A DNA stretch of 26,007 nucleotides from an uncultured archaeon (GTDB taxonomy: Archaea > Asgardarchaeota > Lokiarchaeia > Sigyniarchaeales > SOKP01): positions 1 to 26,007 of the forward strand of contig CAZBPC010000045.1 of the NCBI GenBank assembly GCA_964493715.1, given 5' to 3'. Position 1 is the first letter of the stretch; each line of letters starts with the position of its first letter. This document shows, in pieces, positions 11,569 through 26,007 of this stretch. Position numbers and translations under genes: made by a program. The notes beneath the pieces were generated by a model that made no database searches, was not told the DNA's origin, and saw only the letters and a list, made by a program, of their open reading frames with translations.

Positions 11569-11940
11569 TTAATCTAATAAAGCGGCAATCCTATTTGAAA
11601 CACTTTGAATATTCAGAAAGACCATTCCTAAACTAGCATTAGCATTACATAACGTACATAAAATTGCATTTTCCCCAGCTTTAGATAAAATAATAATTCC
11701 GTTTACTCCTTCTATCAAAATTCTTTTAAGTTCTCCTCGATTTAATTCCTCTACAGCACGTTCCGAAACACTCTGTATAGCGGCCGACATAGCAGATACA
11801 ATCCCATCATTAACATTTCTACTTAGGACTGAACAAATTGGTAATCCTTGGATGCTAACGATTGCAGAACCCTCTATATCTGAGTTAACCGCAGACAATT
11901 TCCTTAATAAATCTGTCAGTTCACTGATATTTTCAGACAC
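11569..11940 (-). CDS. Roadblock/LC7 (MglB-like) domain protein
   Basis: IEGSAIVSIQGLPICS, VSAMSAA..SVSERAVEEL.RGEL..ILIEG..G, LGMVF. GTG start with AAGGAGG SD. Confidence 0.93.
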   Translation of the reverse strand: MSENISELTDLLRKLSAVNSDIEGSAIVSIQGLPICSVLSRNVNDGIVSAMSAAIQSVSERAVEELNRGELKRILIEGVNGIIILSKAGENAILCTLCNANASLGMVFLNIQSVSNRIAALLD

Positions 11941-21064: not shown

Positions 21065-23602
21065 ATGAAAAAAGCAATGAGATACATATTGTTTTCTTTT
21101 TATGTTTTAATATCTATCAACATATTCATGTTATTCTTTCTTCTTTTTCTACCTGATTCATTACAAATCTTCATCGATTGGACTTTTTGGACAACAATAA
21201 TTCTATATTTATTGACTATCGAAGAATTTTATAGATTCAGTAAAGATGGAAAAAGGAGCGATCTTAGTGATATTCTTGCGATTTTTTTCTTCTTCTTTGT
21301 GATTTTATTTCTTTCGAAAGATTTGATGACTTCTATAATGGGGGCATTTTCAATATATTTATGGTTTGGAATATATGAACTTAAAGATTATCCTGTTTTG
21401 AATAAACTCTTAATTATTTCATTGGTAACTTATAATATTATATTTATCGCAGGGATCATATCTACATACCTTTCTAATCCTCTTTTTCTAAATGCCACAT
21501 TTGGTTTTTCTTTTTGGATTATTTTAGGATTAGGTTTTATACTATTTGGACGAAAATACATCATAGTTTGGAGATTTATGTCGCCCGAGTATTTAACCCT
21601 CTTTTTATATATTATAGCGTGGTTGGCAGTCGTTTTTGTTGATAAATACATTCTATTTAATTTTATCCGATATGGTCCTTTAGATTTAAGGAATTTCAAT
21701 CTTTTAGAGTTCTTTCTTAATATTTATTTTATTTTAATATTTGTGAACTGGTTAGTATATTTTATTTCGGGACCACTATTAGATAAAATGCTTGGAATTA
21801 AGAGAGTAAAAAATGGCAATCTAGTTGCTTTAGTAAATAGCGTAAAAGAAAGAATGAAGATAAAAGGAAAAGTAAAAGTAGGATTTGGTAAATATCCCAT
21901 CTTAAATGCAATGGCTTACGGTTCCATTTTTGATAAAAGAATTGCTATTATTGCTGAAGATTATGATGAGATTCCTGAAGATGAAATGAAAGGGATTGTC
22001 GCACATGAATTAGCACATTCTAAAGGAAAACACACCCTCATACTAACTCTTATAACATCGCTAGATCTTATGGTTCGAATGATACTAGGCATTCCAGCAA
22101 CTATATATGACTATACATTTGCAAACCCAAGTCTCCCCTTATTAGGGTTTTTATTATTGAATGTGGGAATATATGTCATACTCTACATTTTTGTGAGATA
22201 TTTGGAAGGGAAGGCTGATTTGAAATCCAAAAAGACAGGTTATACCCAAGAATTAGCTAAAGCACTCTATAATCTCGAAAGTTTTTACGCAACTGGAAGA
22301 GAAATTGGACTAAATACAATGCTATTGTGTGATGAAAAAATAAATAAAGATAATCAATTAATGAATTATATGGAAACTGCACAATACTTGCATAATTCTA
22401 TGATAAAGCCATCTCGAACATCACTCCTCGGAAATATATTAAATTCTCACCCCCCTAGTTATTTTCGATTGGCTGCTTTATTAGACGACAATTTAAAACC
22501 TATGAATGAGGCGTTCTTACCTTTTCTTTGCTTGAGGAAAAAAACAAGGAAAAAGTATGCTGAAAAATTTAGAAAAGCTGATAATGAGTTTAAAAAATTA
22601 GCTAACCAGAAATTCATGGAATTATTTGAGATAAATAGCGTGTCAACTTATTTGAATGGACTAAAACGTAAGGAGTTATTCAAATATGAAATAGGGAATG
22701 ATTACATGTTCAAAAATAAAATTTCTGATGAAATAGTTGTTGGAAAATTAGAAGATGTAGAAATTGTCGATGATCTTTGTGATCCTGATCGATATATTAT
22801 AATAGAACGAGAAAACACTCAAAAAAGATCATTAGAATCTTCCCAATTTGCTGAAAAAAGAATAATATATAATGGAACTTATTTTATGGATAATCTTACT
22901 TCCCTTAAATTACTTGAGCTAAAAATTAATGAGGATAAAAAAAATGGAATAATCAATTTTCTTGATAATGAAAATAATTTAATCTCCAAAGAAATTAATA
23001 AGCTTAAATTACCGTTATCAGTTGATATCATCAAGAAATTTAATAATTCGGATGTATTTTTTAAGGAAAGAGGAGTACTGAAAATAAATAAATGTATAAA
23101 TATCAATCCAGCAATGAGATTAGATGAATTTAAATTAGAATTTCAAGGTGATGAATCTTCTCGCAAAAAGGATTATATACTCACGGAATTAATAATTAAA
23201 CCAAAAAATGTATTTTTAGTTATAAGCAAGACTAGGAGCTTTAGAGCATCAGAATTGAATATATTAGAATGGCTTAAGCAAAATGAAGTAAGAACACTCA
23301 TATCTTTAAAAAAACCCGTAAATAACTCGGAAATAGGGTATTTGCTCGATATGAATTTAGGTGATGTAAATGACGAATCCAAACAGACAATGAAAGAAAA
23401 TGATAATGAAGATTTTGTATTAATTAAAAATATTTTCAAAAAAGAAGTTAAAATTCCCTACAAAACGATTGATTATTTATCTTTTGAATGTAGTACTGGA
23501 TCGATTTCAAAAAAATCAGAAACTAGCCTAATTAATAAATTTGGTTATAAAATTACGAAAAAATTAAAACCCGATAAAATATTTTACCTTAATAAAGTTT
23601 AA
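21065..23602 (+). CDS. M48 family membrane zinc metalloprotease (HtpX/Ste24-like) with N-terminal multi-TM and C-terminal soluble extensions
   Basis: LNAMAYG, DEMKGIVAHELAH (HExxH), EGKAD, LAKAL, SHPP..FRL. Confidence 0.88.
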   Translation: MKKAMRYILFSFYVLISINIFMLFFLLFLPDSLQIFIDWTFWTTIILYLLTIEEFYRFSKDGKRSDLSDILAIFFFFFVILFLSKDLMTSIMGAFSIYLWFGIYELKDYPVLNKLLIISLVTYNIIFIAGIISTYLSNPLFLNATFGFSFWIILGLGFILFGRKYIIVWRFMSPEYLTLFLYIIAWLAVVFVDKYILFNFIRYGPLDLRNFNLLEFFLNIYFILIFVNWLVYFISGPLLDKMLGIKRVKNGNLVALVNSVKERMKIKGKVKVGFGKYPILNAMAYGSIFDKRIAIIAEDYDEIPEDEMKGIVAHELAHSKGKHTLILTLITSLDLMVRMILGIPATIYDYTFANPSLPLLGFLLLNVGIYVILYIFVRYLEGKADLKSKKTGYTQELAKALYNLESFYATGREIGLNTMLLCDEKINKDNQLMNYMETAQYLHNSMIKPSRTSLLGNILNSHPPSYFRLAALLDDNLKPMNEAFLPFLCLRKKTRKKYAEKFRKADNEFKKLANQKFMELFEINSVSTYLNGLKRKELFKYEIGNDYMFKNKISDEIVVGKLEDVEIVDDLCDPDRYIIIERENTQKRSLESSQFAEKRIIYNGTYFMDNLTSLKLLELKINEDKKNGIINFLDNENNLISKEINKLKLPLSVDIIKKFNNSDVFFKERGVLKINKCININPAMRLDEFKLEFQGDESSRKKDYILTELIIKPKNVFLVISKTRSFRASELNILEWLKQNEVRTLISLKKPVNNSEIGYLLDMNLGDVNDESKQTMKENDNEDFVLIKNIFKKEVKIPYKTIDYLSFECSTGSISKKSETSLINKFGYKITKKLKPDKIFYLNKV

Positions 23603-23630
23603 TTTAAATGCTTTTTTTTTAGTGTTTAAT

Positions 23631-24596
23631 ATGGTTAGTAAAATCAGAAGTATTATAACTCTACTAAGGATAAGACAATATTATAAAAACCTCCTAATCT
23701 TTGTCGGCATCTTTTTTAGCAAGAGATTATTCGAGTTTTCTCTTTACATCCCTCTCATTTTTGGTTTTATTTTGCTATGTTGCACATCATCCTTTAATTA
23801 TATAATCAATGATATCATCGATATCGAAGATGATAAAAAACATGCTGAAAAATTGAAAAAAAAGCCCCTTGCGTCAGAGGCTTTATCAATTTATTTTGCT
23901 GTAGCCTTATTAATGGTTTTGACTGTTATTGTTGTCTTTTCACTCCTCTTTTTAATCCCAACTTTTTGGGATTGGGACTTTGCTATCATGATCTTATTCA
24001 TAGTTATCACTGGGCAGGTCTACAATCATTTTCTTAAAAATTATGCCTTTATTGATATTATCATTTTATCTACGGGATATTTATGGAGAGCATTAGCGGG
24101 TTGCATGATAATAAGAGAATTTATTTCTGCTTGGCTTTTCCTCGTTATATTTGAAATCGCAATGTTTTTAAGTATTGCTAAACGTAAAGGAGATCTCCAA
24201 TTTCTTGGTAAAGATAAAGCAATCGAACATAAAAAGGTATATGATCAATATTCCGTTAAATTATTAGATCAATTTCATGTGATGATTGCTGGATCTTTGT
24301 TCATGACGTATTCTTTATATCTAATATTGAAATTTAATTTATTTGAACAAGAAAGCATAAATTTATGGGAATATCTTGCAATATTTACCATACCAGTGCT
24401 ATTTTATATCATCATGCGATATACATATTTAACATCAGCGAAACCAGAAATTGCTCGTCGTCCCGAACGTACTTTTCTTGATAAAAGTATTTTAATTGCA
24501 GGATTTATCTTCTTGGGTACTCTTTTTATAACATTTTATTTCGAACAAATTATCCCTTTCCTTAAACAAATTATTACTTTCCTTATTAGTTTATGA
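23631..24596 (+). CDS. UbiA prenyltransferase family, decaprenyl-phosphate phosphoribosyltransferase-like
   Basis: LRIRQYYKN, YIINDIIDIEDDKKH...KPLAS, YNHFLK..AFID, RALAG, AKRKGD. ATG at 23631 preferred over GTG at 23622. Confidence 0.88.
   Translation: MVSKIRSIITLLRIRQYYKNLLIFVGIFFSKRLFEFSLYIPLIFGFILLCCTSSFNYIINDIIDIEDDKKHAEKLKKKPLASEALSIYFAVALLMVLTVIVVFSLLFLIPTFWDWDFAIMILFIVITGQVYNHFLKNYAFIDIIILSTGYLWRALAGCMIIREFISAWLFLVIFEIAMFLSIAKRKGDLQFLGKDKAIEHKKVYDQYSVKLLDQFHVMIAGSLFMTYSLYLILKFNLFEQESINLWEYLAIFTIPVLFYIIMRYTYLTSAKPEIARRPERTFLDKSILIAGFIFLGTLFITFYFEQIIPFLKQIITFLISL
24546..24584 (+). repeat. Imperfect tandem repeat (21-nt period) in the ubiA 3' end
   Basis: CAAATTATCCCTTTCCTT (24546-24563) and CAAATTATTACTTTCCTT (24567-24584), encoding QIIPFL and QIITFL. 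Confidence 0.7.
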
Positions 24597-24651
24597 AGTA
24601 AAAAGAAGATGCAGTTATAGGGTCAAATTATTTAATGCGTTATAAATAATC

Positions 24652-24708
24652 ATGCTAATTATCTTATTCATAGGATTTTATTTTGATCAAATAAGTAATT
24701 TCCTATGA
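24652..24708 (+). pseudogene. Diverged orphan copy of the ubiA 3' end (copy 2)
   Basis: Translates MLIILFIGFYFDQISNFL*; LFIGFYFDQISNFL matches LFITFYFEQIIPFL of the ubiA C-terminus at 10 of 14 residues, with many synonymous codon changes. Confidence 0.7.
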
Positions 24709-24712
24709 ATAA
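24664..24712. repeat. 12-bp perfect inverted repeat / hairpin between convergent genes
   Basis: TTATTCATAGGA (24664-24675) and TCCTATGAATAA (24701-24712), with an inner dyad TTATTT-TGATC-AAATAA. Confidence 0.75.
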
Positions 24713-24768
24713 TCCTGATATTGATACATGAGGCTTTTTTGTTTAAAAAGATATTAATGCTTCAATCG

Positions 24769-25647
24769 CTAAAACTTTAATAATTCCGATAAATTCATTT
24801 TATAAACTTGCTTATGAGATTCAATATCATAAAAATCTGACATTTTTTCTTTACCAATTATATTAGAATCCTCGAAAACTTGCAAGTTTATAGGCTCCTG
24901 TTCTTCATTCTTCAATAATTTAAGATTGTAAAAAAACACATCAATAAGATCATCATAAATTAAATAGGGAACAAATGCCTTCTTTATTATATTATCTTTA
25001 TCATTCTCATTCCAAACATCAAGATCAATTGATCGAGGATAATATTTTTCTTTCTTGATAGTATAAATTTTTTCAGTTTTTCTCTCTCCATTTATAACAA
25101 ATTGAACACTATTTCCTTCCAAAACTTGTCTGAAATGATTTAACATTTTCTCATTATATTTTACTAATTCATTTAAAGTATTTTTTTTATCTCGCAATAA
25201 ATCCAAACTTATAATATTTGAATAGGTTTCTAAAAAATTGGTCATGATGAATGTGAATTCCTGTTTTAAACTTGGAATGTCTATTTCAGTCGATATAGAA
25301 TTTTTATACCACTTAATTATTGGTTCCGGTCTTAATTCACGAAAAATAATTGACTTATATGTTTCTTTAGCATAATTAATTAGATTATTAATACCATGTA
25401 GATAAAATGCTTTGAAATTTATAAATAGTTCAAGGGATTCTGAAACTTCCTTTAATTTATCCAAATCCAGGGGAATTATGCATGTTGGTTCACCATTGGT
25501 AACTTTATCAATTCTCATTGGAACTGGTAGAATTGGTATTTTAAATAAAGTAGTACAAAAAATGTCAAAGCTAAACCCAATTAGAGCAATTTCTTTTTTG
25601 CTTGTACTTAATTTGGTTTTAACTTTTCCCTTATTTCTACTAAACAT
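24769..25647 (-). CDS. Hypothetical soluble protein
   Basis: 292-aa ORF with ATG start and no recognised motif; lies between two orphan ubiA 3'-end copies. Confidence 0.8.
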   Translation of the reverse strand: MFSRNKGKVKTKLSTSKKEIALIGFSFDIFCTTLFKIPILPVPMRIDKVTNGEPTCIIPLDLDKLKEVSESLELFINFKAFYLHGINNLINYAKETYKSIIFRELRPEPIIKWYKNSISTEIDIPSLKQEFTFIMTNFLETYSNIISLDLLRDKKNTLNELVKYNEKMLNHFRQVLEGNSVQFVINGERKTEKIYTIKKEKYYPRSIDLDVWNENDKDNIIKKAFVPYLIYDDLIDVFFYNLKLLKNEEQEPINLQVFEDSNIIGKEKMSDFYDIESHKQVYKMNLSELLKF

Positions 25648-25941
25648 AAAATTACTCAGGTAATAATGAATACTATATTTATAAATCTGTGCTTCCCTTA
25701 TTTACTTACCCATTAAATCTTTGAGAATAATTAGATTAGATTAAAAAGCATTTGTTTCAATTATTCAAAAATACTATTTAATATCATTAAGTAAATCCTC
25801 TAGTATTTATTCTATAATAAGTAAGGTTCAAGATTTACTAACACTTTTTAATTTTCTTTTGTAAGTTCTGAATTATTGATATAAAAAGGAAAAAGTTTAA
25901 GAATTTACAAATAAAAGATTAAAAAATTTTTTTAATTTTTA

Positions 25942-26007
25942 GGATTTCTCTTTTTGGGTACGATTTTTATGACCTTTTATTTCGAACAAATCATCTCTAT
26001 CTTCATT
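25942..26007 (+). pseudogene. Orphan copy of the ubiA 3' end (copy 3), runs off the window edge
   Basis: 25942-25995 matches 24501-24554 at 47 of 54 nt. Translates GFLFLGTIFMTFYFEQII versus GFIFLGTLFITFYFEQII. An in-frame TAA at 25933-25935 shows it is not part of a full gene. Confidence 0.88.

Follow-up and report, generated by a model that had tools for sequence, protein, structure and literature searches.

The question raised by this locus is how the 3' end of a ubiA-family prenyltransferase gene came to recur, as a truncated copy, downstream of a ubiA gene that is itself intact. The window, i.e., the whole stretch of 26,007 nucleotides that was analyzed, is contig C45 in its entirety, from the metagenome-assembled genome (MAG) of an uncultured Asgard archaeon from the Promethearchaeia, or Lokiarchaeia (G000; 3.68 Mb, 160 contigs). 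Near its right end, the tail of ubiA (T1) is followed by a possible degenerate tail copy (T2), a gene for a 292-amino-acid (aa) protein on the opposite strand (g6), and a 5'-truncated tail copy (T3), within which the contig ends (Table 1). The initial annotation, made from the letters alone, had regarded this as three serial versions of the ubiA 3' end around an orphan gene, and had proposed an attachment site of an integrative element that was hit at least twice, or the head of an array of alternative C-termini with cargo genes. That proposal was partly supported: the repeats and the existence of empty and filled alleles stood, whereas the integrase, the array, and the orphan status of the cargo did not. 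We favor, with moderate confidence, a displacement of the ubiA 3' end through recombination where the gene borders on a hypervariable operon, the locus being the scar of an exchange between related strains.

Table 1. Positions of the features discussed in the text. Positions without a contig name are those of the window; an asterisk denotes a stop codon.
Feature	Position	Strand	Evidence or description
Peptidase_M48 membrane protease gene	21065..23602	+	PF01435, E 1.6e-14; conserved left neighbor of ubiA
UbiA-family prenyltransferase gene, intact	23622..24596	+	PF01040, E 6e-19; 324 aa from GTG
T1, working ubiA tail, last 96 nt	24501..24596	+	GFIFLGTLFITFYFEQIIPFLKQIITFLISL*
17-nt core, exact in T1 and T3	24534..24550, partner 25975-25991	+	longest exact match
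Tandem 21-nt duplication inside T1 (EQIIPFL / KQIITFL)	24544..24585	+	repeat search and alignment
Block in G000, not in G006, L075, or the co-occurring strain	24597..25941		GC 23.9% vs genome 31.3%
TATA-box-like motif	24625..24650	+	single-copy in G000; recurs in 7 other genus genomes
T2, possible third, degenerate tail copy	24649..24708	+	IMLIILFIGFYFDQISNFL*; tblastn E 2e-4 within 1.4 kb
g6, intact 292-aa gene	24769..25647	-	Promethearchaeia-specific family; between T2 and T3
AT-rich spacer upstream of g6	25648..25941		without recognizable SBP or g3 remnant
T3, displaced 5'-truncated tail copy	25942..26007	+	GFLFLGTIFMTFYFEQIISIFI...; continues into contig C32
VWA-domain gene; 542-aa pyridine-nucleotide-disulphide oxidoreductase gene; tail copy	C40:19951-23077 (L117)		copy 205 nt, 86% nt, 60/65 aa, same stop
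DUF2804 gene; MFS transporter gene, opposite strand; tail copy	C6:50046-52824 (L118)		copy 91 nt, 87% nt, 24/29 aa, same stop
CdhD-like ORF; gene for 323-aa protein without assigned family, opposite strand; tail copy	C8:45611-47255 (L120)		copy 14/14 aa, 3 synonymous changes
FlpD gene; URO-D-like gene; tail copy	C7:69307-71339 (L119)		copy 49 nt with 1-nt indels; less clear case

Regarding the repeats, the similarity between T1 and T3 is far above chance. Positions 24501-24554 and 25942-25995 are identical at 47 of 54 nt, and the seven differences, at codon positions 1, 3, 3, 1, 3, 3, and 3, comprise four synonymous changes and the replacements I>L, L>I, and I>M, in full agreement with the initial annotation. 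A self-comparison of the 3.68-Mb genome by blastn paired 24483-24560 with 25923-26001 (E 6e-13), and an nhmmer model built from 19 orthologous ubiA tails, with G000 left out, recovered both T1 (E 2.3e-9) and T3 (E 1.3e-4) in a genome-wide search. The 5' truncation of T3 was also borne out, as an in-frame stop at 25933 precedes it; its left edge is blurred by weak similarity that reaches back to 25919-25923 in AT-rich DNA. The terminal 55 nt of C45 are the initial 55 nt of contig C32, and extension past 26007 through this contig, which had been suggested as a check, carried T3 a further 15 nt, in the same register, to a stop codon (81 nt in total), after which the conserved region upstream of the SBP gene begins. 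T3 is, as had been proposed, a displaced 3' end still joined to conserved downstream DNA. T1, on the other side, is homologous to the ubiA tails of two close relatives (genome G006 and metagenome contig L075) up to the stop codon and diverges directly after it; the two 21-nt units of its tandem duplication (24544-24564 and 24565-24585) are 90% identical, and this duplication is missing from both relatives.

The middle one of the three tail versions fared less well. By eye, T2 and T1 have 10 of 14 residues in common (12 of 19 with tblastn), but the tblastn value given in Table 1 was reached only when the search was limited to the 1.4 kb after ubiA, and genome-wide the match was not significant (tblastn E 0.34; nhmmer E 5.5, rank 7, with four chance hits ahead). 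T2 is thus suggestive only as a tail copy, and too weak to be counted with confidence as evidence that the site was hit at least twice. No further tail copies were found in the G000 genome with the last 45 aa of UbiA (tblastn) or with the nhmmer tail model, which speaks against the head of an array of alternative C-termini. Among 29 testable loci (up to 1.5 kb each), tail repeats downstream of ubiA were restricted to G000 and one other genome of the genus, G002, and none was present in G012 over the full ubiA-SBP spacer.

The UbiA protein itself scores 68.7 bits with PF01040 against a gathering cut-off of 34.2, and its best NCBIfam model, decaprenyl-phosphate phosphoribosyltransferase, scores under the cut-off. 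Public gene calls begin the gene at the ATG at 23631, which yields 321 aa. The gene is single-copy in G000, has orthologs in 20 of 24 genomes of the same genus, and follows the M48 gene in relatives as well (M48>ubiA>; > and < denote the ubiA strand and the opposite strand).

Comparison across relatives, as had been recommended, revealed both empty and filled sites. In G006, the closest species representative (ubiA 88-89% identical at the aa level), the ubiA tail can be aligned with T1 as well as with T3 and then enters DNA homologous to C32:2-402 (78% identical), the block being missing. The same empty arrangement is found in L075 (ubiA 89.6% aa), the one relevant of three metagenome stretches matching a 21-letter core pattern, which is 89% identical to G000 over 2890 nt of the M48 and ubiA genes, then 79% identical to C32:2-393, and beyond this similar in patches only. 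Another empty site is represented by the protein P0166 from the 90% ubiA cluster, the gene of which has a G006-type tail, has lost its stop codon, and reads into the downstream spacer. P0166 has a length of 349 aa, with approximately 35 residues translated from the ubiA-SBP spacer, and judging from this protein the extreme C-terminus of UbiA seems to tolerate large changes. Record 28 of the public run X8 (400 nt, depth 6.8) matches 24365-24564 with 10 differences, and its last 19 letters, past 24564, are by eye those of C32:65-83; this record is from a co-occurring strain without the block, and run X8 is without cover over 25626-26007. In G006, L075, P0166, and X8 record 28, the empty site is precise to the repeats, with the tail followed by the SBP upstream region, and the extra DNA in G000 amounts to 1441 nt (24501 to 25942). 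With the empty site being present in close relatives and in a strain that co-occurs, G000 carries a 1441-bp insertion/deletion polymorphism bounded by diverged tail repeats.

An arrangement of this kind may also arise in the computer, if strain variants are joined through a repeated tail into a chimeric contig. C45 does stop within T3 on a 55-nt overlap with C32, the contigs of all four public runs break inside T1 (24516-24545), and several strains co-occur. However, breaks like that in T3 are generic for this assembly and nothing special, given that 130 of the 320 contig ends of the MAG have a terminal 55-mer in common with one, and only one, other end, and any partner joined at 24516-24545 must itself bear a ubiA tail. 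Moreover, record 16 of run X2 (1596 nt, depth 18.3), which is independent of the MAG, matches 24516-26007 with one mismatch and one 5-nt gap and continues for 109 nt beyond. The contiguity of the block and T3 is thus not confined to the G000 assembly. The depth in X2 is even (about 20 over ubiA and 18 over the block), and g6 proteins 99% identical to that of G000 (P0168 and P0169) are recorded on two further contigs. A chimera is thus extremely unlikely. Loose contig ends at 25940 (run X2), 24492, 24540, 24759, and 25774 have low or unknown depth, and nothing was inferred from them.

The tails themselves hold information on their origin. In the G006 clade (ubiA 86-91% identity), they mostly read ...FYFEQIIS-FF/FL-xSL*, with variants. 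T1 has the residues of P0165 in its 5' half and IIPFLKQIITFLISL* in its 3' half, the last 9 nt of which are identical to those of G006 and L075 (the ...SL* type), while T3 has FLFLGTIFM in its 5' half and IISIFI... in its 3' half. P0165 and P0167 are in the 90% cluster of the G000 UbiA protein and 93.5% identical to it (for P0165, 288 of 308 residues; on record for seven contigs, the longest being 20,674 nt), and their working tails have a 5' half as in T1 followed by ...FYFEKIISIFI*, a 3' half of the T3 type, with the switch from T1-like to T3-like across the 17-nt core. The end of T1 is of the G006 type and the 3' half of T3 of the P0165 type, the compared stretches being short; from these residues, the two 3' halves appear to carry two different allele types, which would disfavor a simple duplication in place. 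The claim that T1 and T3 diverged in a coding-like manner held with mild significance in simulations: five of the seven differences are at third codon positions (P about 0.035), and there are no more than three aa changes, all of which are conservative (P about 0.005). With G006 and L075 as outgroups, five changes can be assigned to the T3 branch, four of them at third codon positions, which is a modest indication that most of the divergence of T3 took place within a working gene.

Regarding the surroundings, ubiA borders on an operon that is hypervariable. The aa identities between G000 and G006 are 88% for UbiA against 32% for SBP, 39% for g6, 41-45% for g3, and 56% for the first permease. 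Across the genus, 24 loci that include ubiA have a ubiA-SBP spacer of one of two kinds, 14 being ubiA>SBP> and 10 ubiA>M28<SBP>. The order ubiA> SBP> g6> g3> permease> permease> ATPase> ATPase was found in eight of eight long loci. A profile search of genome contigs with the g6 alignment A1 gave 40 g6 loci (all at 46% identity or less), and in all 36 of those that reach upstream of g6 the order is SBP> g6> g3>, with g6 inverted in none; a search of the same contigs with the single g6 protein gave no relative. In G000, g6 is inverted and, rather than being flanked by SBP and g3 on the ubiA strand, has moved between ubiA and SBP.

The 292-aa gene is located between T2 and T3 on the opposite strand, as initially described, but is not an orphan. 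Of the 40 other genomes of the genus, 36 have homologs of g6 at 35-47% identity, plus more distant paralogs. An alignment of nine g6 sequences including that of G000 has 41 invariant columns, and judging from this alignment the gene looks intact. Two further proteins on record, P0170 and P0002, are 87-88% identical to the G000 g6. The protein has no Pfam, NCBIfam, or PADLOC family match; its AF2 model is of moderate quality (pLDDT 70.9), a Foldseek comparison of this model with the PDB gave nothing with E <0.1 (TM at most 0.17), and no relatives were found on IMG/VR viral contigs. The fixed place of g6 suggests an accessory role in an Opp/Dpp-type operon. In the genomes of the genus, no nucleotide matches to the block exceeded 77%, the best being only patches of the g6 gene, and a tblastn search of the block flanks for remnants of SBP or g3 gave none (all E >=0.025). 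The usual g6 slot corresponds in G000 to C32:2036-3463. Within it, at about C32:3199-3345, the C-terminal region of g6 survives in decayed form (tblastn E 1.3e-4 against the G000 g6 and 5.5e-4 against the G011 g6), with an identity to g6 of only 54% over 28 aa. Also in this slot is a 153-aa hydrophobic ORF (C32:2521-2982, L057), membrane-like by eye and without a family or a counterpart in nine other loci compared.

Two further observations concern this operon. An M28-like peptidase gene lies between ubiA and SBP, on the opposite strand, in 10 loci (L088, L090, L092, L095, L096, L098, L100, L107, L109, and L111) and also in L104, which does not reach ubiA; in six others (L086, L087, L093, L094, L099, and L112), it is found downstream of the first permease on the operon strand. 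This gene has moved across the operon with inversion, like g6 in G000, where the M28-like copy is at C2:177-1343. In addition, the 5' untranslated and signal-peptide region of the SBP gene (C32:196-405, L057) is conserved across the genus at 71-83% nt while the rest of the gene is hypervariable, and the same region is common to paralogous SBP genes elsewhere in G017, G019, G005, and G010; it could be a second recombination anchor.

An important precedent is provided by G002 (C11:696-1082; L017 and L058), in which a 300-nt pseudo-fragment of the ubiA 3' part (aa 185-314, four stops) lies between the intact ubiA and SBP. This fragment is 88.5% identical in nt to the ubiA of G011 vs 78.4% to G002's own, and the N-terminus of the G002 SBP is 81% identical in aa to that of G011, while the ubiA of G002 is nearest to that of G008 (91%). 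Since the fragment and SBP are both G011-like, a foreign SBP operon brought the extra ubiA end along. G002 is direct evidence that displaced ubiA ends at the ubiA-SBP junction can be recombination scars, and this junction is a site of recurrent rearrangement in the genus.

The machinery expected of an integrative element was not found. No recombinase or mobile-element gene was identified with Pfam among the 22 ORFs of the window, consistent with the initial annotation, or among the 10 ORFs of C32:1-12000; the search for a nearby tyrosine or serine recombinase, proposed at that time, thus ended without one. Genome-wide, PF00589 gave one clear tyrosine recombinase, on C33 (145 bits), and a weak match on C1, while PF00239 and PF16795 gave nothing, i.e., no serine recombinase and no SSV-type integrase. 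The locus has no tRNA gene or Rfam family. Integron hallmarks were also missing, with no integrase nearby and with the inverted repeats of the region being short, AT-rich, chance-like pairs. Apart from those without a Pfam family, the ORFs of the window and of C32:1-12000 represent ordinary genes, among them LeuRS, TIM, thioredoxin, penicillin amidase, Roadblock/LC7, glycosyltransferases, and parts of ABC transporters. Replication, partition, or virion genes, the cargo typical of mobile elements, are not in the block, the single gene of which belongs to a chromosomal operon family. What is present is a pair of attL/attR-like direct repeats of the target 3' end next to an intact ubiA (T1/T3, with the 17-nt core). 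The attachment site of an integrative element was not upheld by these results, and displacement by general recombination fits better than a site-specific element.

We propose that the ubiA tail is the left border of a hypervariable Opp-type ABC-transporter operon, which related Promethearchaeia lineages would exchange by recombination. In at least one past exchange, the DNA of a diverged relative may have been anchored in the conserved ubiA sequence while the other end was closed out of register, via a short-homology or illegitimate join. A new tail with its downstream DNA (the 3' part of T1, perhaps T2, and the inverted g6) would thereby have been placed beside ubiA, and the earlier tail, T3, pushed downstream, where it would have kept its original neighbor, the upstream region and gene of SBP. 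Since T1 and T3 are still about 85% identical with a 17-nt exact core, later recombination between them could delete the block, which would be one route to the hybrid tails of close relatives. Hybrid-tailed alleles may be products of such deletions or, alternatively, ancestral empty sites. The order of events, the kind of join, and the source of the inverted g6 are what we infer in this scheme.

A crossover of another kind would account for the same repeats. Campbell-type pop-in and pop-out by homologous recombination is used in archaeal genetics, and the block might have entered as a circle of ~1.44 kb, with g6 and ubiA-tail homology, through a reversible single crossover in the 17-nt core, catalyzed by host homologous recombination or by an integrase encoded elsewhere. 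The structure is exactly what a single crossover yields, namely direct repeats around the insert, each of them hybrid; the tail of P0165 and P0167, a T1 5' half and a T3 3' half that switch at the core, is as an empty or excised site should be, and the 5' half of T3 together with the 3' end of T1 makes a coherent G006-like tail. However, C45 and the first 12 kb of C32 have no recombinase and the one clear tyrosine recombinase is on C33, the cargo is from the neighboring operon's own gene family and is not on viral contigs, and the second hybrid, X8 record 28, switches elsewhere, after 24564, which one site-specific crossover leaves unexplained. The extra 21-nt unit in T1 is also not made by an in-register crossover, and the circular junction was not seen, in contigs that could hardly show one. 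Considering these points, a pop-in is unlikely. We regard as similarly doubtful an internal rearrangement, in which the operon's g6 was copied, inverted, into the ubiA tail with a target duplication of ~80 nt, after which the original g6 decayed and T3 drifted as non-coding DNA. The decayed g6 remnant at the usual place, the affinities that g6 and SBP of G000 share with the same outside lineages, and the changes near the stop of T3, in which G is replaced by A or T as expected from decay at a genomic GC content of 31%, are in line with this scenario; the low identity of the remnant, the apparently different allele types of the T1/T3 3' halves (G006-type ...SL* and P0165-type ISIFI), and the bias of the T1/T3 differences to third codon positions argue against it. 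We know of no mechanism that produces an 80-nt target duplication.

Several points weigh against the displacement that we favor. It requires a donor arrangement ubiA> g6<, which is unseen in the sampled genomes. The g6 and SBP of G000 have 68 and 65% identity to proteins on record with a longest contig of 41,720 nt, and 63 and 61% identity to proteins with one of 27,522 nt (P0003 and P0004 for g6, P0177 and P0178 for SBP); a UbiA protein, P0116 (67%), shares the 41,720 figure, and the equal figures suggest that the matching g6, SBP, and UbiA proteins are on the same contigs. Such parallel affinities of g6 and SBP are explained equally well by relocation inside the operon and by import. The FLFLGTIFM of T3 was in none of the best 120 of 552 ubiA homolog hits, so either its source lineage is unsampled or the 5' changes of T3 are decay. 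Furthermore, the T1/T3 statistics rest on seven substitutions, the tail type of X8 record 28 is only partly known within 24472-24564, and the public run data are contigs rather than reads and show presence only.

The ubiA locus may not be alone in this genome. A self-comparison of G000 gave 53 nearby direct repeat pairs, and at least three more loci (on C40, C6, and C8; Table 1) consist of an intact gene, one ordinary gene, and a 5'-truncated copy of the first gene's 3' end that includes the stop codon and differs mostly at synonymous sites. After the VWA-domain gene on C40, G000 has about 4.7 kb extra in comparison with G022; the order DUF2804> MFS< is common in relatives, and the "cargo" on C6 is therefore the usual neighbor. 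Such loci suggest that overlapping imports from relatives are frequent in the G000 genome. A bolder generalization, which we consider quite unlikely, is that Promethearchaeia move single ordinary genes between related genomes without a dedicated recombinase, using the conserved 3' end of a gene as a portable homology arm through which they pop in and out. If this is true, the ubiA locus would be one of at least four such cassettes in G000 (with those on C40, C6, and C8), each marked by a displaced, mostly synonymously differing copy.

Similarities exist between this locus and several known systems. Phages, integrative and conjugative elements, and archaeal elements integrate through an integrase into the 3' end of tRNA or protein genes and supply a replacement 3' end. 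As in these cases, direct repeats of the target 3' end flank the insert, the gene is intact, and empty and filled alleles coexist; in contrast to them, the locus and its vicinity lack an integrase, the 1.4-kb block carries only one gene, an ordinary one, the divergence between the repeats amounts to 13-16%, and the cargo is from the gene family of a neighboring operon. Campbell integration likewise duplicates a short homology on both sides of the insert by a single crossover, and recombination between the repeats excises it and leaves hybrid repeats, but no circular form was observed here; within a limited literature search, no natural case with the 3' end of a host gene as the homology arm was found. 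Integron cassettes are similar in that single promoter-less or self-contained genes are added at a fixed site, whereas the present locus has no IntI and no attC-like imperfect palindromes, and its repeats are pieces of a host gene.

The closest parallel is found in Rhs, CDI, and type VI secretion system (T6SS) effector loci, where C-terminal displacement leaves "orphan" 3' modules (PMC5361080); in that text, homology-facilitated illegitimate recombination (HFIR) is proposed for rhs loci and T6SS effector-immunity modules with reference to Jackson 2009 on rhs and de Vries & Wackernagel 2002. In both settings, the conserved 5' part of a gene anchors the incoming DNA, which provides a new 3' end and an adjacent gene, and the previous 3' end comes to lie further downstream, truncated on its 5' side, with no need for a dedicated recombinase; fragments can build up in series, and the displaced pieces resemble the genes of other strains. 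Two features of the HFIR type are present at the ubiA locus, namely a 5'-truncated fragment downstream of the intact gene and in its orientation (T3), and an adjacent variable region, the relationships of which disagree with those of the anchor gene (ubiA vs SBP, g6, and g3; G002). The differences from the systems in that text are that the gene here encodes a membrane prenyltransferase rather than a toxin, that there is no toxin-immunity pair, that the host is an Asgard archaeon, that the swapped tail, which shows no sign of having gained a new function, comprises a single transmembrane helix of ~26 residues, and that there are two to three copies at most and no array. Integrated elements of Asgard archaea have been defined by population metagenomics (PMC11529989). 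A literature search that was not exhaustive, and in which PMC11529989 was included, revealed no description, for Asgard archaea, of such scars or of integration or displacement at ubiA 3' ends. The event is of a known kind and, within the literature covered, new for Asgard archaea.

Two other features of the window are described for completeness. For the TATA-box-like motif in the block (Table 1), a promoter or the end of a small element are candidate explanations. In G003 (L139-L143 and L151-L155), a 24-26-nt version ends a repeat of ~126 nt that has at least five copies, four of which are 90-100% identical and the fifth 80%; the motif also occurs with unrelated flanks in G042, G050, G056, G016, and G051, and a match in G044 in the first search was not recovered by the core search. 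As a mobile-element end, the motif was rejected, since G000 has one copy of it and the similarity to the G003 repeat is confined to the last ~25 nt of that repeat. The window also encodes a Roadblock/LC7-domain protein at 11569-11940 on the minus strand (PF03259, E 4.7e-15), which we take to be one of the eukaryote-like signature proteins of Asgard archaea.

Regarding the biology of these archaea, the stretch was wholly or partly present in 24 public runs, nearly all of which are salt-marsh metagenomes, with at least half of the sampled words in nine, and filled and empty alleles co-exist in these salt-marsh populations. Two likely mis-annotations are corrected, in that the supposed orphan is a conserved operon gene and the site is not to be listed as the attachment site of an integrative element. 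The locus is a sequence-level record of gene exchange and reshuffling among closely related Asgard archaea, in which conserved DNA gives way abruptly to hypervariable DNA within the part of a membrane-enzyme gene that encodes the last helix. Displaced gene ends seem to keep the coding signature of their source lineage, and such scars could mark recombination tracts and donor lineages in uncultured archaea.

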